From positions 229,896,001-229,960,000 of the forward strand of contig OZ024742.1 of assembly GCA_964016885.1 (NCBI GenBank): 64,000 nt of DNA, given 5' to 3'. This document shows positions 400 through 59,037 of this stretch, in pieces; position 1 is the first letter of the stretch; every line of letters begins with the position of its first letter. This DNA is from Eledone cirrhosa (lineage: Eukaryota). Position numbers and translations under genes: made by a program. The notes below the pieces were generated by a model. That model was not told the origin of the DNA, made no database searches, and was given only the letters and a program-made list of their open reading frames with translations.

Positions 400-3300
400 A
401 GAAGCGACAGCAGTGGCGGCATCACTAACAGTCGCAGTAGCTACACCGGCGCCAAAATCGCCGGAGCGGGCTCCACTACCGCCACCAATAGCAGTGGAGC
501 TCATACCCCTGCCAGACGCCACGGAATCCGACATATAGTATGAGGCGGGATGGAAGTGGCAAACGGTCTGCCAAAAAAGCAAATAAGGAAAATCCCCTTA
601 GCTTCACCCTCCAAAAGCGAAGGCAAACAAGAGGGTAAAGGCTGCAATGAGACTTGCAGCAATCCCACCACCATCACCATCACAAACATCACCACCACCA
701 ACAACCACACCACCACCAGCACCACCAAAAACACCAATATCGCAAACACAACAAAACACACACACCCAACAGCAACAACAAGAAAACAGCAACAAAATCA
801 CCCCTCCCTCCAAAACGTACGTAGCCATAAATATGGCAAATAAAAGAACTCTTACCACATATAAAGCAGCACACAGACATCACAGAAAAAAACTACTACA
901 CCCCACCAACACCAAGAACTCTCCCGAAAAACATAAACATCATTAAAAGAAAAATTCCCAACGTAGTTGGAGACTTCAGAAGGTCTGTTACCAAGAGGAT
1001 ATACACCGACATCCCCTTGGAAACACCCATGACCAACCAAAGGGACGGTTCTACTGTCCCTTCACCACACGATCAAGGTAAGTGATCCTTTCTCACTTAG
1101 CCCGTTTCTCACCCAACATGACCGTATTAGAATATGCAGTATAAATGTACGTGGCCTGGGATCATCTTGGAAGCAGGGTCACATGCTCAACGACCTCAGG
1201 TTACTAAACATAAATGTGTTGGCCATCAGCGAGACCAGAATCTTCAAAGCACGAGCCTTCGCAGCGATCTTCGGCGGCTACGATATATACAAATCTCCAA
1301 GCCGTCCAGGATCGGGGAGAGGGGTTGCCGTGCTTTTTCGGAGAGGCTTGGATCTCGCCATACAAGCCATCTTTCTGGACCCAGAATGTAAGTCGGTGGT
1401 GCCGACAGAGGCAGGGCGGCCAGATTTCTTCAGACGTCTTGAGACCTTTCTTGGAACGTCCCGCTCTTTAGTATTAGTGGGCGACTGAAATGGTATCTCA
1501 GATGCATGCTGGGATTATGTGGGGCTAGTAGACAGGGAAGGAGGGTGTAAAAGCCTCAAGAACCTGCTCAGACGTTTTGAACTCTCTGACAGGTATAGAC
1601 TGGATTATCCGAATGTTCCAATGTGCACATGGGCAAATCGCATCGGGTCATCCAGATCGTATTTAGATAGGGTATTCTGTAGGGAAACAGATAAGGCTAG
1701 CGTAGGCTGTCCTCAATTTAAAGTAGCCGGATCAGAAATTTTTGATATGTGAAGTTGACTTAGATAAAATCCATAGGCAAGGGCTCAGCTACGTCGTTCC
1801 CGGCGCGCAAAGCTTACAGAGACCGGATTAGCAAATTAGTTAAGTGTGCGTTGACGGGTGCGATCGTCAACAACAGGTGTTGGTTTACCCTGAAAAGGGC
1901 TATTAGAGTAGAATCGATAACGTTTAGCAAAGGAGTAGTGATAGAGGAAAATAGAGTAGAGGGAGAGTTAGTTAGACAGCTAGAAGGGGCGTTTAGGACA
2001 GTCATCGCAACCGACCTGCTTGCGGCGAGATTGGCACTCGACCAATTCTTCAACGCACAGCATGAAGGCTGCGTTGTCAGAGTTAGAGCGCGTGCTCTAA
2101 GAAACGAGGGGACGAAAGCCGTTCAATGGGCCCGGGTGGTGGAGGCGCGCGACGTGGCAATAAGTCCACAATTCGGTCTTTGCCTAATCAAAACGGGCGC
2201 ATGTTGCTCGAACCCGAGTAGGTGTGTGCAGCTTTTCAACAGCACTTTGCTCAATTGTTCGGGAGCGGCGGCGGACCGGATCGGAGTATGGACCTCGGTG
2301 CGTACCTTGACGGACTGCCGCGGCCCTCGACGACCGCAGCGCAGTGCTGCGAAAAGCCGATAACAGCAGGTGAAATACGGGAAGCGATGTCTGACTGTAC
2401 CAGGGTAAATCGCCAGATTTGGATGGTCTGCTCTACGAGCTTTATGCGTATATGCCAGACTTGTTCGGCGACCTCTTGGCAGATGTCTACTGCAACTGGC
2501 AGCAGAACGGGATTATTCCCAGTTTTGTGAGCCGGGGAGCGGTGGCGCTGCTGAGAAAAGACCCGAACAAGGGGGACGTTACAGACAACTTCAGGCCCAT
2601 AACTTTGTTAAACGCAGAGTTTAAGATTTTGGCCAAGGTGTTAGCAAAGACATTGGCGCTTGTCGTCGGTGATCTGATGGGAGAGGCGTAGACATGCGCC
2701 ATCCCGGACAGATCTATCCACGACAACCTCCATTTCAGGCGATACATTATAGAGAGAGTGGTTAGGAAACCTGGCACGAGTGGGGCCCTGATCAACTTGG
2801 ATCAATCTAAAGCATTTGATAGGGTCGACCATCGGCACCTGGCTGCGGTCCTCGAGGCGGCCGACTTCGGGCTCGTTTTTAAGGGCTGGATCGCTCCGAT
2901 GCACAGCGACATCGGCTCGATTGTGAGGGTAAATGGTCACCTGTCGCAGCCTTTCAGCATCATGCGCTCGGTCCGCCAGGGTTGGCCCCTCTCGTCTCTC
3001 TTGTACGTACTGGTCCTAGATTGGAGACGTTTTGGGGGGTCCCACGCGAACTGGGATGCGGGAGATCCGTGTCAGCTTACGCCGACGACGTCACCGTGGT
3101 GGTGTCGAGCACCAAACACGTCCAGATGCACGGCACCCCTCTCAAGGAATACGAAGCTGTGACAGGTGCAAAGATAAACCTGGAAAAGTCGGTCCGCTTG
3201 CAAATCGGCAACTGGAGAGGCAAGTCCATGCCGTCCGACAGCTTCCTGGGGCGCTGGACGGAAAGATCTATTAAATTGCTCGGGGTCTGGTTCGCTCCGG

Positions 3301-4702
3301 CCCTCCAGATGAAGAAAAACTGGAGCGAGGTGACGAGCAGGGTGGCCTCTCTCACCCAGAAATGGGCCGAGAGGAGGCTGTCTCTGAAAGGTCGGTCGGA
3401 GGTTGCGAATAGCGTACATAGCGTCCGTCATCCGCTACCGCCTGACCGTCATACCTTGCCCCCGCCCAAATCTGACCAAAATGGAGCACCTTCTATTCCG
3501 CTTTTTGTGGAAGGGACGTGCTCCCATGGTCAGATGATCCATTTTCTGTCGCACCCGTTGCGTGTAGCACTAGGCATTCTGTGGCTGATGATGCGCTAAC
3601 ATGCGCTGAGTCTGCGACATCTCTGGTGCTTCCTTGACGGTGAACAGGTGTGGTCGCCGTTTGCCAGACGCGCTTTTCCCCAGCTCGTCTCCTTGACTGA
3701 GCTGCAGTCCTGGATCAGGAGAAGACCGAGGAATAGCGCTTGGAAGCTGGAATGTCTCCAAGCGCTCACCGCCCTCTACCAGCTGGGCAGTAGTATCGGT
3801 GGAACTTCCACCTCAGCGTTCTATAGAGGGCTAGTGGAGGGAAAGAGCGACGAAGCTCTCGGGGAGACCCTGGGCGTCGAAGAGGATCAGCTGTTCGCTC
3901 TCTTCAAGAGAACTTTCAGACCGGGCATATGGATAACTTCCAGAAATCCCTGGCCTGGCAGTGGTACTGGGGAGCGTTGCCGGTTCGGGATAAGCTTTAC
4001 AGGCACGGAGGTGCTGTCAGCTGAGCCTGTCCGAGATGCATGCAGGGCGACGAAACCGTCCTACATGCACTCGTTCAGTGCCCGAGGATTGCTGACTTGT
4101 GGAGCTATGTCGAACCGTTGCTGTCGCCTGTAGGACGGATCCGATTATCGACTGAGTCCATTGTGCAGATAGCCCCGCCATCCTCTTTAAAGGAGGAATG
4201 CAGGTACTTTTCATCTGCCTGGTGGCCATGGCGAAAAACATTGTGTGGTGGACAAGTTTGAAAGGATTGAAGACGGATACTTTCCTCTCCGGCCAATCCC
4301 TGATTAACTTTTTCAAGTTTCACTTGAAGAGGAAAATCAGGGTGGAGAGGCAAGTGCTGTCTTCTAGTAAGTTGAAAGGTGGGTGAAAGTAGCGAGTCTG
4401 GTCCGAGAGAACGGGCCCCCTCTGAGTATACGCCTGTAGACTGAGGAGTTGGAAAAGTGAAAGAAGGCGCTTGCCCTGGTGATCAGGGTGGCCGTGGTCT
4501 TTTGTGTAGTTTTCACCACGAGTTACCCTCGGAGGTTTCCCACTTCTTCGGGAATTTTTGTTGTTTGAGTTTTTTTTATTTCTAGCCCGATTTTGTTATA
4601 ACCTGTTTACAGGACCAAAACCCACTTTGCATCCTCCTGTACTATTCTATGCCGTCTCTAATGTTTTTCTCCGTGTCAGCCCTTGTGGCCAATAAAGAAA
4701 TC
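400..4702 (+). mobile_element. Tx1/L1-clade non-LTR retrotransposon, copy A (degenerate, 5' part missing)
   Basis: Thr/Pro-rich ORF1 C-terminus ending at ~1085. Disrupted APE-RT ORF2 1118-4439 (AISETR, FRPITLLN, LDQSKAFDRV, YADD). 3' end cccttgtggccAATAAAgaaatc followed by (ATT)n. Confidence 0.9.
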
Positions 4703-4721
4703 ATTATTATTATTGTTATTT

Positions 4722-5368
4722 TTATTTTCTTTCATTAATGTCTCTGAGATATATGCCGAGTGTCTTCCTGACACCTAGGGCAAATAAATTCACAGTGTGC
4801 ATTGATAAGCCAGTTGATACAGCACATTGATTATAATTTAAAAAAAACAAAAAAAAAACAGTATACATATATACACATGTGCATATGCATATGTAAATAA
4901 AAGAAGGGATATCAATCTTACAGAGATAGTGCTCTTCTTAACACGTGTGCAGTACCAGTCAAAACAATTTTTGCAACCAGGAACCATTCGCAAATATTGT
5001 TCTGTTCCTTTCTTGATCATTCCCAGTCCTCCCACAATCACTGGTATTGTAACGGCCTTGAGGTGCCACATTTTCTAAATTTCAATAAGCAGATCTTTAT
5101 ATTTTCGTAGCTTGTCAAATTCTTTTGCCGCGATATTGTGATCACATGGGATGCTCATATCTATCACTAGACAGACCTTGTTATGTTGATCTTTTACAAT
5201 GATGTCAGGTCTATTTGCTTTTATGGTCCTGTCAGTATGTACAGGAAATTCCCAGAGAATTGTTACTTTTTCTCCTTCAGTTACAGCCTCAGGGTGATGA
5301 TTGTACCACTTGTCTTCAGCTTTGATTTTGTAATGCCGACATATTACCCAGTGTAGATATTGGCCAAC
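4722..5368 (-). mobile_element. R4/Dong-clade 3' fragment (RLE domain), 5'-truncated, family distinct from the main Dong family
   Basis: Minus strand encodes ...HWVICRHY...NRPDIIV...IDMSIPCD...KYKDL...MWHLKAVTIPVIVGGLG (PD..D..K endonuclease). Bounded by ATT-type tracts. Confidence 0.85.

Positions 5369-5435
<67 letters not shown>
5369..5435. repeat. (ATT)n microsatellite at element junction
   Basis: Pure ATT run between an R4 fragment and the Tx1 5' end gaatgccatgg. Confidence 0.98.
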
Positions 5436-8385
5436 GAATGCCATGGTTGACGGAGGCTAGGCTCTGTAAGGTATACTAATTTTTTACCGCTATAACAATT
5501 GTAAATTGTTTAAAACTTGAACCAAATTGTAGATAAAAATACTCTCCTCCTCGTGAGAGGGTTCTTTCTGCCCGTTATTTGGCCCTTCGGGGTTAAACAA
5601 CCGCTTATTGGGGTTTTGTGCCCAATATTCATTTTAAACCGTAAAAAAAACATGGCTACAAAAAAAATGTTCACAAGTCACTGCCACTCTTTCCGTCTTC
5701 TTCTTCCTCAATCGTCATTACATCAGAGAGAAGATTGTCTCTATCCCTCCCTTCTCTAAATGTGGTGTCACCTCTTTCGCAAGCAACGCCATTAAAGAAA
5801 AAGAAAAATATAGTTTCTGGTAGCTTTCACCAAGAGAACGTGCATACCGTGGAACATTTCTCCACGACGACGACAACGACGAAACATGTGTGCGGTAAAT
5901 ACGGAAAGCCATTTCATTCGTCTGACGTCATGAAGAATAGCAGCAGCAGCCGTAATAACAGCAACAGCAGCAGCAGCAGCAACAGTGACAAAGAAAATAG
6001 TAGTAGCAGCCGCAACAACATCAGCAGCAGCATAAACAACAACAGCAGCAACAGCAACGACAACAGCAGCAACAGCAACAACAACAACCACAGCAACAGC
6101 GGCGGCGGCAGTAGTGGTAGTACCTGCAGCAACAACAAAAGTAACAGCAGCTCTGACGACAACAACAACAACAACAGCAGCAAAAAAAACCAATCTCGTT
6201 TGCAGGTATCGCAAAGAACTTGGAAACCATCCTTATAACAAATGAGGAATTACAGGAAGAAAAGAAGATGGTGAGGAAAACCGGACACCGAGCAATCTGG
6301 TGTGGCAGCGGAAAACGCATATCACCCGAGGCAAGAAATATGCCACCGTGGACGTGCTTTTTTGCCACACCCCAGGAGGCAAAGGCTCAATCCTTAGTGA
6401 CCCTAAGGAGCGAGGAAATGGTGTTGGTCCCCTCCTACTGCGGGCAAAAATTTGTGAGGGCCCCTTCTTGGCTGGCCGCGTCTGTCCTCGTCGGAATCGA
6501 GGACAAAACAACTGTACTGCAAGTACAGAAAAAAGTACGAGAAGATTGGGTCGGCGCCTCCATTGAGATGTTAATTCAAACCAACCAGGAGTGCATCGAA
6601 GCTATCTCGGATTTGATAGACTTCGATAACGGCACTCAACTGCCCATAAGTGTTGAGGGCAAACGCCCGAAATGCTTTCGCTGTGGGTCGAAGACTCACC
6701 TCAGGGCCTTCTGCAATGAGAAGACCCTGAGAAAGAAGAAAACCCCCCTCCTTCCTAAACCGGCTCCACTGCTACCAGCAACAGGACAGGTGACAAGTAG
6801 GAAGGATAGGTCCGTGGCACTCATACCCACGCCACGGAAATCAAAAACAGCAGCAGCAGTGGAAGTATTAACAACAGCAACAGTAATACCAACTGCAGCT
6901 GCAACAGAGACTCCACTGTAACCATCACCAACAAGAACAAGTGAAAGAGTGGAGCTGGTACACCTCCCCGACCTCACAGAATCGGACATGGAGTGTGAGG
7001 TGGGAGAGGGATGACAAAAGGTCGCAAGAAACACAAACGCAGAAGGAGTGCATCGTCTTCTTCGAAAAGGGAGGGAAGAAATGAAATAAGGGTGAAGGCT
7101 ACTGCAAAGAGACTTACAGCAGCAACACCACCAACACCATCACCACCCACACTAGCACCACCATCACCAACGGCGGCATCCCCACCGCCAACAACAACAA
7201 CACCTTCAACACCACCACCACAAGCACCAACATCGCAAACACAACAAAACACGCATACCCAGCATCAACGACAAGAAAATAGCAGAACCACACCCCATCC
7301 CCAGAAAGAGAAATGCACAGCAATAAATACACACAACAAGAAACTAATGACTTACATAATTGAACACACAGACATTTCACAGCACGACTACATAATACCA
7401 AGACCATAACGAACATAAGACTGGTGAGAATAGCACAGAAACAATACACATACATTAAAGTGAAATTCCCCAACGCAGTTGATGATTTCAGAGACCTAGG
7501 AGAGACACTCAACCGGAGAGTATATTCAAATATACTCACAGAAGAGCCGACGTCCAGCTGAAGCGACGATTCAACGGTCCCTTCACCAGGCGATCAAGTG
7601 AAAAGGGATGGATAAAACACACTTCCTCTACGAGAAGTAAGGTAAGTGGTCTTTCCCATCTTTTCCACTCCATTTCAAAATGACCTCACTCAGAATAGGC
7701 AGCATAAATGCGCGTTGCTTGGGGTCGTCATGGAAGCAGGGCCACCTGCTCAAGGATCTCAGGTTACTAAACATAGATGTGGTGGCCATCAGCGAGACCA
7801 GCATCTCCGAGGCACGGGCCTTCGCACCGATCTTCGGCGGCTACGATGTGTACGCATCTCCCAGCCGCCCTGGATCGGGGGGGGGAGCACTTGCATGCTT
7901 TTTCGAAGAGGTTTGGATCTCGCCATACGGGCCATCTTCCTGGACCCAGAAAGTAAGTTGATGGTGCTGTACGTGACCAGCGGAGACGGGCAAGCTTTCA
8001 GGTTAGTATCCGTCTATGCCCCGACAGGAGCAGGGCGGCCTGATTTCTTCCGGCGTCTGGAGACCTTTCTAGGAACGTCCCGCTCTTTAGTGTTAGTGAC
8101 GACTGGAACGGACTCTTAGATGCACGCTGGGACTGTGTGGGATTAGCGGATAGAGGAGGAGGGTGCAAGAGCCTCACCAACCTGCTCAGGCGTTTTGAAC
8201 TGTCTGACAGGTACCGATTGGATTTCCCGAATGTGCCAATGTGGACTTGGACAAACCGTATCGGGTCATCCAGATCATATCTATATAGAGTATTTTGTAG
8301 GGAAATAGATAGGTCTAGCATAGGCTGTCCACAATTCAAGATAGTCAGCTACACAGACCACAAACTCCTGATCTGTGTGGTTGAT
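5436..8385 (+). mobile_element. Tx1 copy B, 5' end present, 3'-deleted
   Basis: Same 5' UTR as copies C and D. Frameshifted ORF1 5652-7645 with CFRCGSKTHLRAFC knuckle. ORF2 APE domain from 7680 breaks off after YTDHK. Confidence 0.92.
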
Positions 8386-11300
8386 TTCTCCTTGTTGTCA
8401 TTTCCTCCTTGGACATCCCTTGGTCTATTGTCCTCTCCTTCAGTACAATTCTGAGCATTGGCTCCCCACTATCAGTCACGTATTTGTGTAGGTTGTTTTT
8501 CTCCATCTGAACAAAGTCCTCTATGCTGATAGAATCACTTCCACCTTCAGATCTCCTTAAGTAGAGTCTATCGACATCACTCCTCTTGTGGAACATGTTG
8601 TAGATAGTCAATAGCCTCCTAGTCTTCCTATCCATTTCTATTTGTTCAGCAACAATATATCTCAGAATTCCCGCACTGTGCCTAATAATAGACACAGCTC
8701 GGGAATTTACTGCACTTATGGCATTCCTACTGTTCAGATGTGACTTTAATACGCTCCTTACTCTCCAAATGTATTCAGATCTTATCAATTCCTTCATTTT
8801 TTTGTTCTTGATGTCATCAGCCTCCAGAAAACCTAAATATTTGTATCCTTCTTCAGTATCAATATCCTTTATCATCTCACCTGTTGGTACCTGGATTCCG
8901 TTGCTTCTGCTCAATTTACTCCTCTTCATCACAAGGACTCCACAGTTGCTAGTACCAAATTGCATACATATATCATTGCTGAAAATACGGACAGTGTCAA
9001 CAAGCACATCCAACTCCTTCTCACTCTTCCCGAAGAGCTTAAGATCGTCCATGAAGAGGAGATGATTGATGGTAAGCTCTCCCTTTCCCAACTTGTATCC
9101 TGCTCTCACTTTTCGCAGTATAATGGTCAGGGGCATCATGGCAAGGACAAACAACAGAGGGGACAAACTCTCTCCCTGGAAGATACCTCTCTTGATCTTC
9201 GCGCCTCCCAAGGATTCTCCGCCCGATGTTAACTCTGTTTTCCAGGACTTCATACTTTTGCTCAACAACTGCCTGATGTTATCTGCCACCTTGAAGATCT
9301 CCAGGCTTTTGGTGATCCAAGAATGAGGCACCATGTCAAATGCCTTTTTGTAGTCTATCCATCCCATGGCAAGAGCAGTGTGTCTCCTCTTGCAATTCCT
9401 CATTACCATCTTATCAATAAGTAACTGGTCCTTTGTACCACGGGACTTATTTCGGCCTCCTTTCTGTTCGTCCGGTAACAAATTGTTTATGTGGAGGTGA
9501 TAGTAGATTTCCTCATACACAATGCTTGTCAACAGTTTCCACATTACGGACAGACATGTGATAGGTCTATAGTTGGTAACATCATTACCCTTGGTTCGGT
9601 CTTTCATTACCAGAACTGTGGTACCTTTTTTCAACCACTCTTGTACCTCACCCGACATCAAGCAGTCATTGAACATGTTTGTCAGTTTCGGGTGGAGGGA
9701 TGTTATATTTTTAATCCAATACCTCTGCACACCATCTGGGCCTGGTGATTTCCAGTTGGTTAGTTTCCTGGCCTGCCCCTTAAGAGTTTCAACTGTGATA
9801 CTCAAATCAGTTTGTTGGCGTGCCTGTTCACTAATCTCCTTCTGTACTGTCTCAATCCACACTGCCATGTCATTATGTTTAACATCCTTCTCTCATATTC
9901 CTCTCCAGAATGTTTTAGTTTGTTCCGCCTCAGTGATCAAGTCGTTCCCTCTTCCTTTCCCTTCAAGCTGTCCAAACAACATCTTCTGGTTGTTGTCAAA
10001 CATGCGGTTGTGTCTATACTGGCTGACTCTGTTCTCGTATCGCCTAATATTTGCGCTCTTTGCTACTATGCGTTGCTTCAGTTCCTCTATGATAATATTT
10101 AGCTTTTTCCTCCTTGTTTTGTACTGTATTTCCAGGCTATTGTTAGTGTTTAAGTTTTGTATTGTCCCATTCAGTAGGGACTCAAGCTTTCCAATGTCAT
10201 TTCTCATTTCCCTGATTTGACCATTCAGTCGTTTCTTTCACCAAGGTTCTGATCTTTCTTGTTTGTTGTTTCCTCTCGCTTTTGTGTCAAGTAATTTCCT
10301 CACTGCATTTGCTGTTGCTTTGGGGATATTTGTGCACTGCTGAAGGTTCCTCGCCTCAAGGTATGTGATGACTTTGTTTACCTTAGCTGTTGTTTCTTTT
10401 AACTTTTTCCTGTCTACAAATATTAGGTTCATAGGTTTCCCACGATCATTGTTCATTTGAAATAGCTTGCTTTTGTTTTGGACTGAAACATTTTTGTATT
10501 TTATTCGTACGAGAATTTTTTAAAGAATCTAAGATAACTTGATTTGGCCCAGTAATCTACTGATATCAAAATCAGTAGTATATTGAAGAATGGAAAAATA
10601 GGGGGGGGGGGGGGCGTTTTGTGATTTCGAGGGTTGAGAACCTAAAATGGGTTGAGAACGCTAAAATCACCGGGGCTGATGAAATCACTGGGGGCGGTAA
10701 AATCACCGGTGGTTATGTAACCATACATTCACAAATCCTCGATATGAGTGTTTAAATGTCGAACCTAAGTTTACCACTAAGTTTAGGATATCAACCGAAT
10801 CTTGTCCTAGCCCGTCAGCATTCATTTCCTCAATGGCCGTATCTTTGTTCCAGGTATTATTTATTTCAGCATTTAGATCATTGTCTGATTCGGATGCTTC
10901 CTGCGTTCTCTCAACCTCTTCACATTCATCTCCCACTTGCTCGTTTGCCTGGCATACTCCAATCTAATCTCTCTGCTGAGTTCCTCCAGTTCCAGCTTGC
11001 TTATCCACCCATTAGTTCTTATTACCCGAGCCTGCCCGGCTAATTTTTGTTAATCTAATTTAAATAGTGCAATCTCGTTCCAGATGCTATGCATCCGTTT
11101 CCTATAGCCTTTTTCCTTGGGGTTACTCTTCATGTAACATTGCATAACAGTTCTATTCAATTCTTTCGTCCAGTTGGTTCTTGTCCCTTTCCTTCTTCTT
11201 CTTCCTCTAACACCACCAGTATTTGGATGACAGCCATCTCCCTGCTGCTGGGCCAGGGAGCACCTGGTGGGTGAGAGTCTGTCACATGACACTCCAGTCT

Positions 11301-11430
11301 CCACTTCACCGTTATTCGAATTGTTTAGGTTCGACATTTAAACACTCATATCGAGGATTGCTGAATGTATGGTTACATAACCACCGGTGATTTCACCGCC
11401 CCCAGTGATTTCATCACCCCCGGTGATTTT
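8386..11430 (-). mobile_element. R4/Dong copy 1, coding part (3'-deleted, degenerate)
   Basis: ORF starts at 11337 (MSNLNNSNN...NWTKELNRTVMQCY). RT motifs [45 protein letters not shown] in 8345-9868. Collinear with the copy at 29891-34835. Confidence 0.92.
10456..10768 (+). repeat. ~310-bp inverted duplicate of 11325-11630 inserted in the Dong ORF
   Basis: tttgaaatagcttgc...gtcgaacctaa is the near-exact reverse complement of ttaggttcgac...gcaagctatttcaaa. Confidence 0.92.
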
Positions 11431-11962
11431 ACCGTTCTCAACCCATTTAAGTTCTCAACCCTCGAAATCAAGACCCCCCCCCCCCCTATTTTTCCATTCT
11501 TCAATATACTACTGATTTTGATATCAGTAGATTACTGGGCCAAATCAAGTTATCTTAGATTCTTTAAAAAATTCTCGTACGAATAAAATACAAAAAGTTT
11601 CAGCCCAAAACAAAAGCAAGCTATTTCAAATTATATATTTTTGAAATAAAAAAAAACATTTGATCTCAGTCGAAAAAGCATTTTTTTTTTTTAATTCTAT
11701 ATTTCACTGTTAGCTGTTGTAATATTTTGAGTGGATAGACAATTGAAACTGCAAAGTAAAAATACAAAAGATGCAAAATATGAAGAATTTCTTACCTTTC
11801 TCTGAAATCACAAACTCAGGGGAAAAATAGTACCTTGCAAAATAATATACCTCATAGCAAAATAAGTAGTAAGGAATGAATTGAGAAGCTTGGTGACTGA
11901 GAAAGCAATATTTTTTATCCCTTATATATAAACATAGATAGACACACACACACACGCACACA

Positions 11963-12004
<42 letters not shown>

Positions 12005-12140
12005 CACACACACAAACTTGTGTGTGTGTGTGCCTTGGTACAGAAGAATTTCGTCTACAGTTTTTTATTGCCAGGTCAAAAGCTACAGCTCTTTTCAACA
12101 ACGCCAAATAACAACGCTCCACACATACACACACGCACAT

Positions 12141-12173
<33 letters not shown>

Positions 12174-12234
12174 AATGAAGAGAAAAAGAGGGAGGGACAG
12201 AGAGAGCAAAAAATGTGTGTGTGTTTGGTACACG

Positions 12235-12271
<37 letters not shown>

Positions 12272-12370
12272 TTATCTCCAACAGGGGGCTCACACATGCG
12301 GCCTGCGAACTACTTATCTGTGGCCCGTGGTAGAACCAATATTTCATATCGCATTATAACTGGTGAAAAT

Positions 12371-12686: not shown

Positions 12687-12745
<59 letters not shown>

Positions 12746-46728: not shown

Positions 46729-46779
<51 letters not shown>

Positions 46780-49135
46780 GTTCTTTGAGTCTCAGTCATT
46801 GATGTTAGTTAACTGGAAATTTTGTTGAAATGAATATCAATCCACTACCTGCAGCCTCAGATATTCAGGACGTATCGGAGGGTTCTTGCTGTTTCCAGCA
46901 AGCATGCCTTTGAAGCGTTCCAAAAAGCGTGGCGGGGCCAATTTTCATTAACCATACCTGGAAACATTTTGAGATAGTACCTAGTGCACCTATGACAATT
47001 GGGACCACTTTGATTTCATGGCAGTTCCAAATCCTTTTTACCTCCCATTTTAAGTCCTGGTATCGGTTAATTTTCTCCCGCTCCTTCTCTTGCAATCTCG
47101 TGTCGAATGGGCAGGCCACATCCACAATCAGGCACGATCTTTTTTCTTTGTCCAAAACCACCAGGTCAGGTCTATTCTGTTCCAGTTTCTTGTCCGTCGG
47201 TATGCTAAAATCCCACAGCACCTTCAACTGATCGTTTTTTATCACCGACTCTGGCTTATGCTCATACCACTTCTCAGAATGTGGTAAATTATTTACTTTG
47301 CATGTGGCAGTGGATCACCCTCCCAATCACATCATGTCTCCAGCCCTTATAGTGAGTCTGGGCTAGGTGTTTACACTCGGATACAATGTGAGCCACAGTC
47401 TACTCTCTCTCTCTCTCCACAGATCCTGCACAGTGGGCTAGCATCCTCCTTGTAAATATGGTGTTTCAACCACTTCGTTTTGAGGGCCTGCTCTTGCGCA
47501 GCCATTAGCATTCCTTCTGTAGTCTTTTTAAGGTCTCCTCTTTTCAACCAGTTCCATGTCTGTGGATCTCTGAATTTAGTTTTCTCAAAGAAGGTACTAC
47601 GAAGGGATTTTTCCTGAAGGCTGCTCTTCCTCCTTGTTGTCATTTCCTCCTTGGAAATCCCTTGGTCTATTGTCCTCTCCTTCAGTACAATTTTGAGCAT
47701 TGGCACCTTACTATCAGTCACGTATTTGAGTAGGTTGTTTTTCTCCATCTGAACACAGTCCTCTATGCTGATAAGACCTCTTCCACCTTCAGATCTCCTT
47801 AAGTAGAGTCTATCGTCATCACTCCTCTTGTGGAACATGTTGTAGATAGTCAATAGCTTCCTAGTCTTCCTATCCATTTCTTTTTGTTCAGCAACATTCC
47901 ATCTCAGAATTCCCGCACTGTACCTAATAATAGACACAGCTGGGGAATTTACTGCACTTATGGCATTCCTACTGTTCAGATGTGACTTTATTACGCTCCT
48001 TACTCCCCGAATGTATTCAGATCTTATCAATTCCTTCATTTTTTTTGTTCTTGATGTCATCAGCCTCCAGAACGCCCAAATACTTGTATTCTTCTTCAGT
48101 GTCAATTTCCTTTATCATCTCACCTGTTGGTACCTGGATTCCGTTGCTTCTGCTCAATTTTCCTCCACTTCATCACAAGGACTCCACACTTACTAATACC
48201 AAATTGCATACATATATCATTGCTGAAAATACGGACAGTGTCAACAAGCACATCCAACTCCTTCTCACTCTTCCCGAAGAGCTTAAGATCGTCCATGAAA
48301 AGGAGGTGATTGATGGTAAGCCCTCCCTTTCACAACTTGTATCCTGCCCTCACTTTTCGCAGTATAATGGTCAGGGGCATCAGGTCAAGGACAAACAACA
48401 GAGGGGACAGACTATCTCCCTGGAAGATACCTCTCTAGATCTTCACGCCTCCCAAGGATTCTCCAGCTGATGTTAACTCTGTTTTCCAGGACTTCATACT
48501 TTTGCCCAACAACTGTCTGATGTTATCTTCCACCTTGAAGATCTCCAGGCTTTTGGTGATCCAAGAATGAGGCACCATGTCAAATGCCTTTTTGTAGTCT
48601 ATCCATCTCATGGCAAGACCAGTGTGTCTCCTCTTGCAATTCCTCATTACCATCTTATCAATAAGTAACTGGTCCTTTGTACCACGGGACTTCTTTCGGC
48701 ATCCTTTCTGTTCGTCCGGTAACAAGTTGTTTGTGTGGAGGTGATGGTAGATTTCCTCAGACATAATTCTTGTCAAGTTTACACATTACGGACAGACATG
48801 TGATAGGTCTATAGTTGGTAACATCATTACCCTTGATTCGGTCTTTCATTACCAGAACTGTGGTACCTTTTGTCAACCACTCTGGTACTTCACCTGACAT
48901 CAAGCAGTCATTGAACATGGTTGTCAGTTTCGGGTGGAGGGATGTTACATTTTTAATCCAATACCCCTGCACACCATCTGGGCCGGTGATTTCCAGCTGG
49001 TTATTTATTTCTTTTTTTAGGCCTGCCCCTTGATAGTTTCAACTGTGATACTCAAATCAGTTTGTTCGTGTGTCTGTTCACTAATCTCCTTCTGTACTGT
49101 CTCAATCCACACTGCCAGGTCATTATGTTTAACAT
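46780..49135 (-). mobile_element. Dong copy, 5'-truncated, degenerate
   Basis: RT and RLE fragments collinear with copy 2; ATT tracts at 46729-46779 and 49139-49167. Confidence 0.92.
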
Positions 49136-49167
49136 AACATTATTATTATTATTATTATTACTATTAT

Positions 49168-52100
49168 GGCCGCACATGTGTTAAGACAGTACAAATCTGC
49201 GGGGGAAAAGTTTCGTAACATGAAGCTGTTTTAAAGTGTCATTTTTTGTATTTTCTTGTCGTTAACGAAACTTAAGGTACACATCTTGATTTAAAGAGAG
49301 GGATACCTCTCAATATTCGGTCTTTAAGTCCGAATATTTAGATTTAATTTTAAAAACTTCGAAAAACAATCACTTCCCCACCAAAAGAAAATTATGGAAA
49401 TTTTCGACCTTGAAACGGTAAACAACGTTCAGGTCAAAAGTTTAACGGCAGCCACTGTAGATTTCACCACGACTGCGACGGCTACAGTCATGCCTGTCAT
49501 CCACTCTACTGAATGTGAAGGCAAAACTCAAAAGCTACCATCACAACCTTCTACCATAGCAGCAGTATCATCTGAAAACGACATCACCAGCACCGCCACC
49601 ACCACCACCACCACAACAACAACTCAGAGCAATAACGACAATAACACTGACAGCTTCAATGTAAACAAGGATGGCGGTGGCAACACCAATAACAACAGCA
49701 AGAATGACATCAACAACAATAAGAGCATAAGAAACAGCACATTTGCTGCAGCAGCAGCAAAAACAAAGCGCTTATTGAATATTGATATTGATATTAGCGA
49801 TAAAGACGAACAGTTGGCCAAAGCGTGGAGGCTAATTAAACGGGAGAAGTCCTGGGCAAACCTGACCATCCCGGACGAGGCAATAGCGGCCATGCAAAGG
49901 AGGGCGGTGTTCTTTCGATGTATTTCGGTGCAGACACGAAAAGTGGAACTTGCGAGCCAAGCAGAGGTAGAGGCTGCTTTGGAGTACATCGGAAGTAACA
50001 TAGAGTACAAAGCAAGAGGCAAACAGTTCGGTTCCATCTCGGTACTGTTCAAAACCGAGGCCCTCGCTATTAAGCACTCGGTGACCCCCTGCAGAACGGA
50101 ACGCATTATCATGCATGCGTCCTATATGGGTAAAAGGACAGTGAAGGTACGCATTCCCAGCATCCCACCAGGAATGAACATATGGTGGCTGCTGGGATGC
50201 GTAATCTAGGAGGGGGCAGATACTACCCTCCTGGACATCAAAAGAACAGAGAGAGAGGACTGGTCCGGAATGGATTTGGAGATTCTTCTCCAAATGAAAC
50301 CGGAGGATATGAATAACATCCCGGATTTTGCCCGCCCGCAGGACGGGACAACAATCCAACTAATGATTGACGGAAGAAGGCCACGCTGCTTCGTCTAAGG
50401 GGAAGCAACGCATCTTCAAGCCTTCTGCCCTCAACGCAAAAATGCAGGGGGTCGCAAACCTCCTTTGTTGCCAACGCCAGTGTCAGCATGGAAAGCTACA
50501 CTACCACCACCACCAAAAACATCAACAAAAACACGGACACCAACATCAAAAGCAGCCGGATCACCACCAACACCAAAACCAATCCAAGGAGAAAACGAAG
50601 AAAGCTCTCCCACTCCCTCTACCCCCCCCCCCCCCCAATTATACACATAGAAAAAACAATAAACGCACACACAGACACAGAGACACTCATAGACACAGAC
50701 CCTTTGTCTTCCAGCAGCGAAGATGAAGGAAAACCCAAAAGTGCAAAAAAACAGAGAAAACTCACAAAAAAAAACAAGCACCAACAAAACACGAAAACAC
50801 ACACAACAAAAACTACAGACACCACTAACGCAAACACTTCGCCAATAACATCATCACCAACAGCAACATCGACACCACCTCCACAATCCCCGAAACGCAA
50901 ACAACCTAAACAAACAGAAGTACAAATAAACACACAAATACCTGAAATTGCAGAGACCACACCTACAACAAACATATACATACCCGAAACAACACCATCT
51001 TCACCAAAACGAAAACAAATAAAACCACACCAACAAAATGTTAAAAACTTCGTGCTTGTCAGAAGGGCCAACGATAAACTGATGGCCCTCTTAGCGCGAA
51101 GCGAGGACATTCAAACAGAGGGGGAGATTTTTGAAATGAGCACATTTTGCGTGCCAGAAGATTTGCTTCTGGTCCGAATGTCACTCAATTCCTTCAAAGA
51201 AATTCGAGAGAGCTTTCCTCAAGACGTGGGAACCCCGAATGTGAAACCCACATCAAGACTTTTAAAGGGGTTCCCAAAAGAAACCCCACCAACCATGGAG
51301 ATCGAACCACCCGACCTTCACGAGACCCGGGAGGTAAGTAAACCTTCCCTCTCTCTCTCTTAGTTTACCTATATGGCCATATTAATAGTAGGAGGTTTAA
51401 AAGTTCGCGGCCTGGGGTCTCCCAGGAAGCAGGGTCGCCTGCTCAACGACCTCCGGTTGGTGGAAATGGATGTGATTGCCGTAATCGAGACCAGAATTTC
51501 CGACACGCGCGCACTAGCCCCCATTTTCGACGACTATCAGATCTTCGCATCTGTTAGCAGGTCGGGAATGGGGGGTGGGGTGGAAATGCTGTTTAGGAAA
51601 GGACTGGATCTCGAGGTAAGTTCGATCTTCCGGGACACGGACGGTAAGTTGCTGGTCTTGGATGTGAGCAGTAGCGAAGGTGGTGCCTTTAGACTGCTGG
51701 CCGTCTACGCCCCTACAGGGGCCGGACGACCTGACTTCTTTAGGCGCCTGGAGACCTTTCTGGGTACGTCTCGCCCTTTACTGTTAGCGGGGGACTGGAA
51801 TGGCATCTTAGACGCACGCTGGGATTGTATGGGAGTAGCCGATAGGAGCGGGGGGTGCAAAAGCCTCAAGCACCTACTCAGCCAGTTCCAACTGTCTGAC
51901 AGGTATCGACTAGATTTCCCCAATGTGCCAGTATGGACATGGACCAACCGAATGGGGTCATCTAGATCGTATATAGACAGGATCTTCATTAGGAAAATAG
52001 ATAGAAATAGTGTGGGCTGTCCACTTTTTAAAACGGTCGCCTATTCAGATCACAAATTTGTGATCTGTACGGTCGACCTAAATAAAACGGGTAGGTTAGG

Positions 52101-55056
52101 ACTTGTTACTGGAAGCTGAACATGTCATTTCCGGCACGTAAGGCTTACAGGGACCGAGTCAACAATTTAGTTAAGCAAAAGTTGACAGGGGGGATCATCA
52201 ACAACAGATGGTGAGTGGCTCTCAAAAGAGAGATTAGCGTAACTTCGATAGAGTTCAGCAAAGAACTAGCGTTAGAGAAAAATAGAAAGGAGGGGGAGCT
52301 GGTAGATAAGTTAGACGAGGCTATTTGTAGTGGCATCGCAACTGACGTGCTAGCGGCGAGAATGGCATTAGACCATTTCTTCAATGCCAAACACGAAGGT
52401 TGCATTGTCAGAGCCAAGGCGCGTGCGCTGAGAAACGAGGGAACTAAAGCTGTTCGATGGGCCCGCGTGGCGGAGGCGCAGCGTGGTAATAAAACCACAA
52501 TTCGGTCGTTGGCGGACCGAGACGGACACGAGATAAGCGATTCCAAGCGGATGTTTGAGGCCTTTCGGAAGCACTTTGCTCGGTTGTTCAGAGAGAGTAG
52601 CGGATTTCAGTCCCTACCTTGACGGCTTGCCGCGCATCTCGACGGTCGACGCTCAGCGGTGCAAAAGGCCGATTACTTCAGCCGAATTTCAGGACGCCCA
52701 TGTCGGCTGCATGAGGCGCAAGTCACCCGGTTTGGATGCCCTGCCCTACGATCTTTACGTAAATATGCCAGACTTCTTCTCCGAACTCCTCGAAGCACTC
52801 TACTGCAACTAGCAGCAGAATGGGAGTATTCCCAGTTCTGTGAGCAGGGGAGTGGTGACGCTAATAAGGAAAGACGAGAACAAGAGGGATACATTAGACA
52901 ACTTCAGGCCCATAACTCTGCTCAACACAGAGTTTAAGATTTTGGCCAAGGTGTTAGCAAAGAGATTGGCGCTTGTCGTCGAGTATTTGGTTGGGGAGGC
53001 GCAAACTTGCGCAATCTCAGCCAGGTCCATACACGACAATCTCCACCTCATGCGATACATCATAGAGAGGGTAGGGTGTAAACCTGGCTACGGTGGGGCA
53101 CTGATCAATTTAGATCAATCGAAAGCATTCGATAGGGTCGACCATCGGTATATGGAGTTTGTCCTCAAAGCAGCTGGCTTCGTCCCTGTCTTTAGAAGCT
53201 GGATCGTTGCAATGCACAGCGACACATGCTCGGTGGTCCAGGTTAATGGCCACCTCTCGGAACCATTTCGGCTCTCCCGATCGGTCCGTCAAGGGTGCCC
53301 TCTTTCTTCCCTTCTGTACGTATTGACTCTCGAGCCTTTACTGCGGAAGCTGGAGCTGTTGCAGGGCATCCCGCTCGAACCGGGACGTGGAAAGGCGGTT
53401 TCGGCTTATGCGGACGACATCACCGTGATGGTGTCGAACACCTCAGAAATCGAGGTCGTCGGCACCTTATTGAAGGAATATGAAAGGTTGACAGGAGTCA
53501 AACTTAACCCGGAAAAGTAGGTGGGCTTGCAGCTGGGAACCTGGAGGGGCAAGCCCATGTCGTCCAACAGCGTCGTGGGGTGCTGGACGGACGGACCAGT
53601 AAAGTTGCTCGGGGTTTGGTTCGGACCAGACCTCCAGGTGGAAAAGAATTGGGACGAGGTAACGAGCAGAGTAGCCAGTCTCACCCACAAATGGGCTGGG
53701 AGGAAGCTATCACTGAAAGGTCGCGCGGAGGTGGCGAATGCGTACATCGCGTCCTTCATCTACTACCGCCTAACCGTCGTGCCTCGCCCCCGTCCGCGCC
53801 TCGTCAAGCTGGAACGGCACCTCTTCAAATTCTTGTGGAGGGGACAAGTTCCGTTGGTGAGGCGGTCCATCTGCTGCCATCACCCTCTACGCGGAGGGCT
53901 TGGCATGCCGTGGCTAATGATGCGCAGACATGCGTTGAGGCTGCGACATCTCCATATATTCTGCCTCAACGGTGAACAGGTGGGGTCGCCGTTTATCAGA
54001 CGGGCCTTTCCGCAGCTCATTTCTTGGACTGAGCCGCAGTCCTGGGTCAAGAAGAGACCGATAGTGGGTGACTGGCACCTGGAATGTTGCCAGGCACTCA
54101 CTGCCCTCCACCAAGCGGGCAATGCGATCAGTGGAACTTCCACTATCGAGTTCTATAGAGGATTAGTGGTGGGCAAGTGCGATGACGCACTCGGAGAAGC
54201 TTTGGGCCTCGACGAAGTCGAACTGACCAGTCTGTACCGGAGGACTTTCGAGCCAGAGACGATGGACAATTTCCAGAAATCCCTCGCTTGGCATTGCTAT
54301 CGGGGGGCACTGCCGGTTCGGGATAAACTCTACAGGCACAGAAGTGCTGTCAGACGGACCTGCCCAAGATGCGCACAATTAGACGAAACCGTTCAGCACC
54401 CACTTGTCCAATGTCCGTGCATTACTGACTTGTGGAGTTATATCGAACTGCTACTGTCGCGTGTGGAACGAATCCGGCTATCGGCCGAGTCCATAGTGAA
54501 GATCGCTCCACCGCCTTCCTTAGGTCAGGAAGAGCAGGAAATTTTCCTCTGCCTGGTGGCAGTTGCGAAAGAGATTATATGGTGGACCAGGTTGAAAGGA
54601 CTAAAGACAGACACTTTTCTCTTCGGCCAATCCCTCATCAACTTCTTCAAGTTTCACCTGGAAAGGAAGGTGAGGGTGGAGAGAGAAGTGCTGCCCCCCA
54701 GTACATTTGCTAAAAGGTGGGTGAATGTGGCGAGAATCGCTCGTGTGAATGGGCCTACTCTGACCATGCGCCTATAGGCTGGCTAACTTGAGGAGAGGGG
54801 TGCTCTCCCTGGGTGCCCTAGAAGCGCAGGGTGGTTCAGGACTGGTGGGGTACCTGAAGCACCCCAGGGTTGTACACCCCCTATCAGGGAATTTATTTTG
54901 TTATATTTATGCATAGTTTATTTTATATTTTTATATTTTCATTGTTAAATTAGTCTTGCCTTTGTGCACTTTTACTCCACCTTATTGTAAACACCCACTG
55001 TCCCTGTCTTTGTATTGTGCCCTACATGTCGGCCCTGGTGGCTAATAAATGAAATC
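49168..55056 (+). mobile_element. Full-length Tx1 copy F, divergent family (inactivated)
   Basis: Distinct 5' UTR and ORF1 49394-51363. ORF2 51373-54777 has the same motifs with many substitutions and stops. 3' end ggtggctAATAAAtgaaatc followed by (ATT)n. Confidence 0.92.
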
Positions 55057-55083
55057 ATTATTATTATAATTATTATTATTATT

Positions 55084-58000
55084 ACAGTAGCATTTATCTT
55101 GCTTTATGTTTATACGAGTTATCACCATGTCACAACCAGTGACCTCAAGAGACAACAAGGTCCGCCATGTTCAAGAAAGAACATACATACTCACACATGC
55201 ATCTTTAGGTGTTTAGACTTGTGATGTACTTATATTGACAGAATCTTCCTTAGTATATGGGCAGTTCCCATTAGTACTATCTTTTGTATTTCTCCTATAC
55301 GCGGGTTTCCTGGGATTCTCATAGCGCCCTCAACCACTGGTATTGTTTTAGTTCTCAATTTCCACATTTTTCCAATTTCTATCTCCAGGTTCTTATACTT
55401 ACTCAATTTTTCAAATGTTTTTATAGATACATTCTTGTCTATTGGAACGGACATATCAATTAGCAGGCATACCCTCATTTTAAAGTCCTTCAATATTATA
55501 TCAGGTCTATTTGCATCTATGTTTCGGTCTGTTTGGATGCTAAAGTTCCACAAGATTGAGATGTGATCTTTTTCAAGTATGGGAGGTGGTTGATGCTCCC
55601 ACCAATTCTTTTGATGGGGCAGGTCAAAATGCTTACACATTATCCAATGTATGTATTGTGCAGCTCTGTCATGCCTGTTTAGGTATTTGGTTGGAGCTAT
55701 AGGACTGCACATTGAAATTATATGGTCAATGGTCTCTGGTTGTTTTTTACATACACGGCATAATGGGCTGCATCCATTTTTTATTATGTTGGCTTGGTAA
55801 TTTTTTGTTGGGAGACACTGATCTTGTGCTGATATAATCAGTCCTTCAGTCTCCGATTTCAGTCCAGAGGATGCCAACCACTGATGGGTTAAAATTTTGT
55901 CAACATCAGGATTGTTAGCTCGTTCTGGGTATTTTCCATACAGAGGCTTTTCTTGCCATTTCTTAGCCAGTTTCTGTAGCATCTCTTTCTTTGCAGTTAC
56001 TTTTACCTGCTTTGCTTTTTCTGTGTTTTCCATTTCAGCAGTAAATGGGACTTCTGAAATGTGTAGTCCATTACTGTATCTTTGTGCATCTTTTGTAATG
56101 GAATATGATCTTTTGATGCTTTCGTGTTTCAAAACGAGTTTGATCATCCAATCATGTGATTCCCTTAGATATGTAGATAATCCAATTGTTGCAGTTTTCA
56201 ACGCAATGTCTAACAGGACTAACCCACGTCCTCCTTCTTTCCTAGGGAGATATATTCTATCTATATCTGCCTTAGGGTGATGCATTCTGTGCATGGTTAA
56301 GAATTTTCGAATTTTTGTATCGAGCCTACGGATCTCTGTGCTTGACCAGTTGATGACATTGTAACTGTAGGTTACTACTGGTATGGCAAGCGTGTTTATG
56401 GCATCGATCCTATTCCTTGCATTCAATTCCGTTCTTAAGATTGCTCTTACTCTGCGGTAACATTCCTTCCTTATCCTTTCCCTCATTGTCGAGTGCTTGA
56501 TTCCGTCTCCTTCACAAACACCTAGATATTTGTAAGTTTTTTCTTGATCAAGTTCTCTTACCACGTTCCCCCCGATCAAGATTAATGTCTGAACTCTTCA
56601 GCAGCTTTCCTCTGGTGAACGTTGCTTTGGCGCATTTATCTAGTCCAAACTCCATTTTAATGTCATCACTGAACTGCTCCACAGTGGATAATAGCCCTTG
56701 CCATTGTTCATCATTTTTTGCAAATAGTTTCAGGTCATCCATGTAGAACAAGTGATTAATGGTTTTGTCATAGACTCTATATCCATGTTTTGTTTCATTG
56801 AACATTTTACTTAATGGTATAAGTGCGATGCAGAATAAAAGCGGTGATAAAGAGTCACCCTGAAAAATTCCACAATTAATATTAACTTCTCCAGCTTCCA
56901 GTGATTTTGTTTCACTATTCAAAAGGAGTGTCGTTTTCCATGTCTTCATACTGAATGACAAAAACCTCCTGACAAAGGGGGATATTTTGAAAATCTCTAA
57001 ACATTTTTCAATCCAACTGTGTGGCAAACTATCGAATGCTTTTTTATAATCTATCCAAGCAATTGATAGATTTTTGTGTCTATTATGACAATCTTCCAGT
57101 ATCATTTTGTTAACCAAAAGCTGATCCTTACAGCCATATGAGCCTCGTTTACACCCTTTCTGCTCAATGGGAAATAGGTCATTTGTTATCAGGTGGTCAT
57201 ATGTGTATTCAGTTAGGACTGATGTTAAAATTTTATACATTGTGGTCAAGCAAGTTATCGGTCTGTAATTTTTGGGATTGTTTGTCTCATCATTCTTCGG
57301 AAGCAGGAATGTAATGCCGTTAACTAGCCATGATGGTATCTTTTCTGGCTCCTTAACTATTTCATTGTAAAGTTGGGCTAACAGCTCATGAGACTCTGTG
57401 AAGGCATTTATCCAAAACTTTTGTATTTTGTCTTTTGCTGGGGATTTCCATTTGCTGGTTTTTCTTAGAGCCAAGCGCAACTGTTCAACTGTTATGTTTT
57501 CCCATATTTGTTCCTCAAGGTGAGCTGTATCTTTCATTTGTCTGTCTATCCATGGGGCATGTATGTTATGAACTTTTTCTTCGGCCCAGATCTTTTCCCA
57601 GAATTCTTGCACTTCCTCCTTGGGTGGTATTGATTTATCAGTTATTGTTGACTTACCAATTTTTCTGTAGAAGTTTCTTTGGTTGTTTTTGAACATATTA
57701 TTGTCCTTATAGAATCTAGATCGTTTTTCAAAGCGCCTTATACGAGCAGCTTTGGCCGACACTTTTTGCTTGATTATTTCTATCAGCATGTCTATGTCAC
57801 TTGTTGATTTTATACTATACTTTCTTTTCAATTTTCTAAGTTTAGTTTGTTTAACATGTTCACCTACTTTATAGTTTGTTAAAATTTCTATGTCAGATCG
57901 GAGAAGGTTTATTTGGCGATTGATGTTCTCTTGCCAAGTAGATTTCTTTTGTGAATTCCTTTGTTTTTTCATCTTCACTCCACATAAGTGAGTGGTGACT

Positions 58001-58950
58001 TTAGCCGATGCATAATAGAGATGATTTAAATCAGTAATGTTTAGTTTGTTTGTGATGATAATTTTTTTGAGAATTATGTTAGTCTTGTGTATTATCTTTT
58101 GGTTCTGTTTGGAGTTCTGGATCTTAGGGAGGGTGTCTCGTTGCCCCATGTCAGATTCTTTCATTTTCATTCATTCGATCTTAAGCATGCACTCCCTCCA
58201 CTTTTTCGATCCTTTCTTTAATTTGTTCTGTTGCCAGTGATTCCGCCCCAACCCTGTGATTCGAAGTGTTACAATTTACCTCGTTTTCACTGACACATGT
58301 TTCATTTTCCCTTCGCTGACTTTGTGCTAATAGCTTGATCTGATCAATTTCTATATCAGTTAGTAACTTTTTTTTTACAATATTTCTTCGTATATTGGCT
58401 AGTTTGTTACTGTCAATATAGCCTCTGTTTTCGGGATGTTTCTTTTTCCAGTTGATATATGTCTGTTCTGTATTCGATGTATTTGATGGGTAGTACATGG
58501 CAGTGTAGAAAGCCTCAAGGTCTTCTTTATTATCTTCCCTTGACCATTTTTCTCTCTTTTTCTTTGGATTTTTTGGTGGTGAGCATGGAGGGCCAACAGT
58601 AGGAGTATTCCGGTTATGGGAGGTCTCCAGCTCCGAAGTGATGGGAAGGTTTGAACCATTAGCTGATTTTTCGACCCCAGTCTGGTTTCTCTCTGAGGGA
58701 CGCGGCCCTTTTTTACCCGGGTGACGGCCGATCCGGTATGAGATTTTATCATTAGACATTTACTTTATTTTGTCGCGTTTTATCCTTATCCGCCAAGGGG
58801 TAATCATTTCGTGTTACCACTTCTAGAACGAGTGTCAACCAAGACTAGAGGGGTCGTTCTCCCCTAGAGACACGGCTATTCCCCGCCGGCCGCCATCCCG
58901 GTATTTCTTGGTCACAGGGTTTTCTTTTTTGTTGTTTTTTTAAATTGTTA
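55084..58950 (-). mobile_element. R4/Dong-clade element, third family, near full-length
   Basis: ORF pieces 58181-58759 (KWSREDN..AFY), 56548-58170 (YRPITCL, DYKKAFDS, GIFQGDSLSPL, YMDD) and 55230-56579 (CRVC..ETIDHIISMC, RHD, RPD..IDMSVP). 5' boundary approximate; ATT tracts on both sides. Confidence 0.92.
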
Positions 58951-59037
58951 TTATCATGAGTGGTTCCTTAATGTGAGCATTGCGTGGCTTAAGAATGAAA
59001 TTATTAATTTATTATTATTATTATTATTATATTTGTT

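Follow-up and report, generated by a model that had tools for sequence, protein, structure and literature searches.

Tx1-like and Dong-like retrotransposons of opposite polarity in (ATT)n tracts of the Eledone cirrhosa genome

A two-directional array and its elements

The window analyzed here is a stretch of 64,000 nucleotides (nt) of Eledone cirrhosa contig OZ024742.1 (G000:C3:229,896,001-229,960,000, within the 3.0-Gb genome), and it holds an array of long interspersed nuclear elements (LINEs) of two kinds that are joined by ATT tracts, one Tx1-like with an apurinic/apyrimidinic-type endonuclease (APE) and one Dong-like with a restriction-like endonuclease (RLE). The copy census by self-BLAST and tblastn agrees with the one given in an earlier note on this DNA, with six copies encoding APE and reverse transcriptase (RT) on the + strand and eight copies encoding RT and RLE on the - strand, the latter comprising three families. 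All 13 tracts listed in that note are present at their positions, each reading (ATT)n on the + strand. On this strand the window contains 13 runs of at least five ATT units versus 1 run of at least five AAT units; the + strand of a 600-kb grid sample contains 15 and 16 such runs, respectively. ATT tracts make up 13 of the 14 element-to-element joints, and four of them (5370, 21903, 34836, and 49139) are head-to-head, each flanked by two 5' ends, and are therefore the tail of neither neighbor. The assertion that every copy ends in such a tail without exception proved wrong, as the tail is present in 5 of 6 Tx1-like and 7 of 8 Dong-like copies and the others are fused at 8385 without a tract, where one deletion took the 3' ends of the Tx1-like copy at 5436 and of the Dong copy ending at 8386. 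The left edge of the array is an (ATT)6 tract 1695 bases left of the window and the right edge is near 59030, with scattered copies only in the 100 kb on either flank. The Tx1-like copies fall into subfamilies TA (three copies), TB, TC, and TD, and the Dong-like copies into a main family (A) and two others with 35–40% and 36% protein identity to it. The 3' parts of the copies in the window are 78–97% alike, one being identical to copies on other chromosomes, and the array has therefore been built by many insertions over a long time. The features are collected in Table 1.

The TA copy at 21923-27952 is young, because it shares 99.97% identity across 6030 bases with a copy on C7. TA open reading frame (ORF) 2 contains the Pfam domains Exo_endo_phos, RVT_1, and zf-RVT, and its best solved relative is human L1 ORF2p (E 3e-52, versus 1e-21 for R2). 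By these features TA belongs to the L1 group, having an N-terminal APE, an RT, and a C-terminal zinc-binding region and lying closer to L1 than to R2. None of the APE catalytic residues varies in an alignment of 24 relatives. Elements of the Tx1 clade have two ORFs, the first bearing a gag-like CCHC knuckle, and TA ORF1 contains such a knuckle (CFRCGSKTHLRAFC); the vertebrate L1 ORF1 domain gave no Pfam match in TA ORF1. The endonuclease hairpin loop of TA is as long as that of L1, and the graft of Xenopus Tx1L in PDB 2v0r exceeds it by two residues; this loop varies with the target and is no clade marker. TB has another 5' end and ORF1 upstream of a TA-like ORF2.

An intact Dong A ORF (locus L262) of 1141 amino acids encodes a CCHC knuckle and a PD-D endonuclease motif in addition to RT; an APE is absent. 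The Pfam matches of Dong A are RVT_1 and zf-RVT only, with neither an N-terminal zinc finger nor Myb/SANT; a divergent N-terminal Myb/SANT domain has been detected in the R4/Dong clade with HHpred (PMC7998251; papers are cited throughout by PubMed Central number and for the parts covered). The best solved relatives of Dong A are R2 proteins (E 2e-30, versus 6e-14 for L1). Among the protein matches listed (120 listed for Dong) and in a cluster look-up there is no protein named as Tx1, Kibi, Koshi, Dong, or R4, and architecture and target, rather than a tree with named references, are thus the basis of the putative labels "Tx1" and "Dong/R4". Bombyx Dong has a hepatitis delta virus (HDV)-like ribozyme at its 5' end (PMC3774820); an HDV-like ribozyme gave no Rfam match in the window, and a crude home-made descriptor gave no match at the Dong A head and unconvincing matches elsewhere. 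Families A and C have a 5' head in common, and in Dong C (L009, L158, L296, L303, L308, and L314) the first 700 bases of the family A 5' untranslated region (UTR) and the 3' remnant of a short interspersed nuclear element (SINE) precede a body that is 35–40% alike in protein. Dong C would accordingly represent a 5' UTR swap between distant families, which the composition of TB resembles.

Table 1. Elements, ATT tracts, and foreign block in the window
Feature	Position	Strand	Remarks
Tx1-like TD (old subfamily, ~81% to TA)	1..4702	+	5' end 1695 bases left of window, after (ATT)6; terminates in AATAAA..GAAATC and an ATT tail
ATT tract, tail-to-tail (Tx1 3' end / Dong 3' end)	4703..4726	+	
Dong-like family B, 5'-truncated, RLE end only	4727..5369	-	
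(ATT)22, head-to-head	5370..5435	+	
Tx1-like TA, 5' end complete, 3' half deleted	5436..8385	+	joined to next Dong without tract
Dong-like family A body, 3' end deleted	8386..11430	-	rest at 20297-21027
Foreign block, 8.9 kb, splitting Dong A copy	11431..20296	.	without ATT borders, outside ATT array; holds Penelope-like element and 558-bp tandem repeat
Unoccupied ATT tract within Penelope-like element	14134..14164	-	
5' UTR half of split Dong A	20297..21027	-	
(TTC)12 then ATT tract, Dong head-to-tail	21028..21138	+	
Dong A, 5'-truncated	21139..21902	-	
ATT tract, head-to-head	21903..21922	+	
Full-length young Tx1-like TA	21923..27952	+	ORF1 22136-24235 (CCHC knuckle), ORF2 24271-27690 (APE, RT, zf-RVT), both open
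(ATT)21, tail-to-tail	27953..28028	+	
Dong A, 5'-truncated at same base as 21139-21902	28029..28790	-	mosaic of two neighbors
ATT tract, Dong head-to-tail	28791..28828	+	
Dong A, 5'-truncated	28829..29845	-	
(ATT)15, Dong head-to-tail	29846..29904	+	
Full-length Dong A	29905..34835	-	frame interrupted by stops; RT, CCHC, PD-D endonuclease
(ATT)16, head-to-head	34836..34883	+	between two full-length 5' ends
Full-length TA	34884..40857	+	96.5% to 21923-27952 in 3' part
(ATT)11, Tx1 tail-to-head	40858..40890	+	
Full-length TB	40891..46728	+	other 5' end and ORF1 on TA-like ORF2
(ATT)17, tail-to-tail	46729..46784	+	
Dong A, 5'-truncated	46785..49138	-	
ATT tract, head-to-head	49139..49164	+	
Full-length TC	49165..55056	+	~79% to TA in 3' part
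ATT tract, tail-to-tail	55057..55083	+	
Dong-like family C	55084..58999	-	without first part of 5' UTR
ATT tract at 5' break of Dong C	59009..59030	+	SINE piece then on +

Target and polarity across the genome

Genome counts are exact pattern matches across the whole 3.0-Gb assembly, and the end of ORF2 was the query in the genome DNA search for TA copies. Immediately upstream of the 2471 5' ends of TA, which is the youngest Tx1-like family, in-phase (ATT)3 is found in 2383 cases and in-phase (AAT)3 in 0, and the junction has a single phase in 96% of copies. There are 1482 Dong heads, 843 of which have exact (AAT)3 within 0–2 nt. Among the first 30 Dong heads by position, 26 have at least three AAT units close upstream and 0 have at least three ATT units; of the remaining 4, one shows (AAG)n, two have tracts that are short or degenerate, and one has an internal duplication. 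The 5' ends of TC follow at least three ATT units in 26 of 30 cases and those of TB in 11 of 11. No fixed head can be part of a truncated 5' end, and of such ends 11 of 18 in Tx1-like copies lie on at least three ATT units and 47 of 64 in Dong copies on at least three AAT units, with 0 reversed among the kept rows, and at junctions that had not been used to pick the locus the break is on a tract in 3 of 4 TA and 9 of 20 Dong cases. As background, at least three ATT units on a given strand occur in 0.2% of 171,000 25-nt windows of the grid sample.

Several points weigh against a strict rule of target and polarity. The tally of truncated ends left out 34 rows as internal deletions or inversions, including L028, where a Dong break abuts (ATT)4 in the wrong sense (one reversed case), and many of the kept junctions stand on a tract shared with the element by which the locus was chosen. 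Of the 20 Dong breaks in the unbiased subset, 11 are without at least three AAT units, and 43% of the Dong heads are without exact (AAT)3 within 2 nt. At L280, the Dong and TA copies on either side of a compound ATC/TTC/ATT tract have the same orientation. The absence of reversed polarity covers the whole genome for TA, and the first 30 heads and the kept truncated ends for Dong. Some Dong 5' ends are separated from the AAT tract by (AAG)n runs or repeated first Dong bases (window 21028-21065; L020, L022, L161, L165, and L303), an arrangement that would fit slippage of the RT when the 5' end is joined.

Paralogous sites are found both empty and filled. The ATT tract internal to a dispersed host repeat is unoccupied at L048 and L338, is filled in the forward direction by TA (L004/L067), TC (L054), or a piece of TB accompanied by three copies of TA (L353/L085), and is filled backward by Dong at L185 and L321. 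The internal tract of the Penelope-like element is empty at 14134-14164 of the window, and its paralog at G000:C1:22.04-22.05 Mb holds two TA copies; the tract has 7 perfect units when empty and 8, 8, and 13 around the two TA copies on C1. The comparison of empty with filled paralogs shows that the tract precedes the insertion, is entered from both directions, and grows. These empty sites were obtained by motif search and via the Penelope-like element, whereas an automated screen of ten TA loci for their empty counterparts gave none (one spurious SINE row), and when a solo TA locus was compared with contigs from four runs, no joint across the element was among the joints listed, as contigs break at repeats. 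Solo copies with ATT on both sides are present at L329, L331, and L332.

The genome-wide counts and the empty and filled paralogs bear out the proposal of the earlier note that both clades target (ATT)n with opposite fixed polarity; non-ATT 5' flanks or random orientation, which it had named as contrary evidence, are not seen in most copies. The view that the tracts are only tails is rejected on the head-to-head joints, the truncated copies, and the empty sites. An assembly artefact is likewise rejected, since the copies are of very different ages and one rule holds at hundreds of loci, as is a telomeric or single-locus trap, the window lying at 230 of 379 Mb and the copies being dispersed. 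The locus is not special in this respect, with such arrays dispersed across chromosomes.

Array growth, the (TATC)n sister clade, and the foreign block

The 30 TA heads taken in order of position are preceded by a Tx1-like tail in 9 cases and by a SINE tail in 4, and stand opposite a Dong 5' end in 13; one more is the compound case L280, and 3 are without a known neighbor. Another Tx1-like or Dong copy adjoins the TA head in register in 22 of 30 cases, compared with 13 of 31 long tracts in the 600-kb grid. This difference supports the self-renewing trap that had been suggested for the locus, but arrays are also built by tandem duplication. Against growth by insertion alone, units with identical breakpoints are repeated at C1:55.4 Mb and C1:118.9 Mb, four tandem TA copies (L341-L344, G000:C28:122.86-122.90 Mb) have a 6048-bp period with three equal (ATT)6 spacers, which is a duplication or an assembly effect, and one break and one private end are common to the Dong pieces that end at 21902 and 28790, one of these pieces being a mosaic. 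These repeated units, equal spacers, and shared break mean that duplication inflates the counts; the repeated units could come from read-through retrotransposition or unequal crossing-over. The arrays, which are dispersed, grow through serial insertion with some tandem duplication. An abundant SINE of ~210 bases (grid loci L094-L153; window 59030-59150) has a 3' end loosely like that of the Tx1-like elements and lies mostly outside ATT tracts, and its ATT tail seeds arrays, as at the four TA heads noted above. At L325, L339, and L340 (G000:C1:109.20-109.23 Mb) two arrays of opposite polarity stand back to back with mirror-image outer flanks, apparently an inverted duplication centered in a Dong C copy.

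Sister Tx1-like families in the grid sample are ~70% alike in DNA and have the same kind of 3' end, with (TATC)n tails. Their 30 distinct tails comprise 19 of TATC, 3 of TA, 8 of other units, and 0 of ATT, and 7 of their 16 5' breaks within loci abut TATC, 2 abut (TA)n, and 0 abut ATT. These copies (L214-L256, e.g. L248, L254, and L255; grid loci L108, L111, L119, L125, and L150) stack in tandem. The sister endonucleases have 57–63% identity to that of TA, and the RTs are 70–78% alike. The hairpin that reads DNA in human L1 (PMC1950540) has two differences between the ATT and TATC families, and a second surface loop differs strongly, at several places. In a quick RT tree the TATC families form one clade (Shimodaira–Hasegawa-like approximate likelihood ratio test (SH-aLRT) 95) next to TC (88); this was a quick search with SH-aLRT only, the relatives are unnamed or other L1-group elements, and the row L245 is labeled ATT though its tail turns TATC. 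This placement weakly suggests that ATT is the older target of the two. The (TATC)n sister clade is a natural specificity switch, new here.

The block that splits a Dong A copy (11431-20296) has short inverted ends, which we take to resemble the terminus of a hAT DNA transposon, and an inverted copy of its left border lies at 10455-10768. It contains the Penelope-like element at 13158-17207, whose 427-residue RT/GIY-YIG-like frame (14810-16093, -) is flanked by 750-bp inverted repeats that are 99.5% alike (13158-13907 and 16458-17207); Atlas neighbors of this frame carry RVT_1, GIY-YIG, and HTH_animal. At 17798-19543 a 558-bp unit is repeated three times in tandem (98% alike), without an Rfam match, and Rfam gave no match anywhere in the window.

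Mechanism, rival explanations, and known systems

We consider it very probable that Tx1-like and Dong-like LINEs insert in (ATT)n in fixed opposite orientation throughout the genome, likely via target-primed reverse transcription on opposite strands. In target-primed reverse transcription the primer strand must be complementary to the 3' end of the RNA, so that the primer would be the AAT strand for Tx1-like elements and the ATT strand for Dong. The Tx1-like endonuclease would nick inside the tract, with the (AUU)n RNA tail pairing with and priming from the AAT strand, and the Dong restriction-like endonuclease would make the nick from which the (AAU)n tail primes on the ATT strand. The endonuclease would choose the repeat, and tail pairing likely helps to set the direction. 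Nicking of opposite strands by the two enzymes is what we infer from target-primed reverse transcription, and tail-primer pairing alone could fix the polarity. Every insertion would divide one tract into two and add tail units, and later copies of either clade would thus land beside earlier ones; unequal crossing-over or read-through retrotransposition may duplicate some units, and deletions may remove some joints. The arrays are likely a by-product of selfish elements with no shown host function. A bolder version, which we regard as doubtful, would have target and direction written mostly in the RNA tail, the switch of a young radiation from ATT to TATC made by few endonuclease changes, APE and RLE clades jointly building thousands of two-directional self-extending arrays, and tail-to-tail pairs serving both clades as dispersed dual-strand sources of small RNA.

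It is possible, though on balance unlikely, that tail pairing does nearly all of the work, with endonucleases that nick AT-rich DNA loosely and only those nicks being used that pair with an (AUU)n or (AAU)n tail. Target and polarity would then be set by the RNA tail and not by strand-specific enzymes, TpA steps being present on both strands. The constant match of target and tail fits this explanation (ATT in the ATT families; in the sister clade, TATC tails in 19 of 30 and TATC or TA 5' flanks in 9 of 16), as do the mere two differences in the hairpin loop between ATT and TATC families and a microhomology at truncated 5' ends slightly above chance (means of 1.4 versus 0.7, n = 8, and 1.5 versus 1.0, n = 40). 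Loop grafts alter nicking, but RNA-DNA pairing may add to the choice of site (PMC1950540). However, the second surface loop differs strongly between the two groups of families, the abundant SINE with a short ATT-like end, which is without a known partner LINE, is mostly outside ATT tracts, the TA 5' junction keeps one phase in nearly all copies, and reviews credit target choice mainly to the endonuclease (PMC4494074 and PMC3812793).

That the arrays arose mainly from tandem duplication and recombination at ATT tails, their polarity being inherited from a few founders, would account for the units with identical breakpoints in three arrays and for the mosaic Dong copy in the window. This is highly improbable in view of thousands of dispersed loci with different neighbors, the solo copies bordered by ATT at each end, the dozens of different positions at which copies on tracts are truncated, and the fact that a single array combines three Dong families with four Tx1-like subfamilies, and it is largely refuted by the empty and filled pairs. 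We give hardly any credence to a 5' (ATT)n that belongs to the element itself, being copied from a read-through transcript so that an insertion anywhere would have repeats at both ends. The almost invariant in-phase TA junction would agree with such an origin, and Bombyx Dong is cut from a co-transcript that starts in TAA repeats (PMC3774820), but 5'-truncated copies carry the same flank and the tract is already there at empty paralogous sites.

Insertion of Dong in (TAA)n is in print (PMC3812793 and PMC7998251), and PMC7998251 states it to be the case in most insects, molluscs, and cnidarians. Dong of Bombyx mori, DongAg, DongBg, and Darwinula Dong1/2 (R4 clade) resemble the elements described here in having a single ORF, an RT, a C-terminal restriction-like endonuclease, and a (TAA)n target. 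Bombyx Dong has (TAA)n upstream in the sense of the element, as taken from the primer, which is the polarity of the Dong-like copies here (PMC3774820). Unlike known Dong elements, three families (35–40% identity) share the target here, two of them share one 5' UTR head, and all are interleaved with a reversed APE element. For Tx1, the targets (TC)n (Kibi), (TTC)n (Koshi), and crocodilian (TTCC)n/(TTTC)n have been published, and these elements are, like the Tx1-like ones here, microsatellite-specific members of the L1 group with an APE (PMC4494074). In contrast to Koshi, the target here is (ATT)n, one base from the Koshi unit, with a sister clade on (TATC)n, and neither unit is given for Tx1 in the parts of PMC4494074 covered. 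SART and TRAS in Bombyx telomeric repeats are likewise two families that form arrays in one short tandem repeat in opposite orientation (PMC10088271), but both are telomeric R1-clade elements with an APE, whereas the microsatellite shared here by an APE and an RLE lineage is interstitial and dispersed. The U2 small nuclear RNA genes are likewise a target reached in parallel by an APE element, Keno, and an RLE element, Utopia (PMC4640811); these two have the same 3' flank and hence the same direction, in a low-copy gene and without bipolar self-extending arrays. In coleoid cephalopods, the abundant and recently active elements listed include Dong-R4 and L1-Tx1 (PMC13282606 and PMC8967140), and the cephalopod repeat papers, these two included, contain no target analysis in the parts covered. 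ATT- or TATC-specific Tx1 elements and bipolar Tx1/Dong arrays were not found in the open literature searched; Repbase, subscription journals, and the supplements of PMC4494074 were outside the search and may hold one. The parts are thus known, and the phenomenon is real and general, in a combination not found in print, namely an ATT-specific Tx1-like lineage that shares the target of Dong in reverse.

The arrays offer a simple rule for transposon hotspots, in which two unrelated clades gain new target from each insertion. The sister families on ATT and on TATC, with ~60% identity in the endonuclease, 70–78% in the RT, and intact young copies, let swaps weigh the endonuclease against RNA tail pairing in LINE site choice, a long-standing question that bears on site-specific gene insertion with retrotransposons. 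Many long ATT microsatellites of this genome (13 of the 31 in the sample) lie next to such elements, a point to be considered when developing markers, assembling the genome, or calling insertions.

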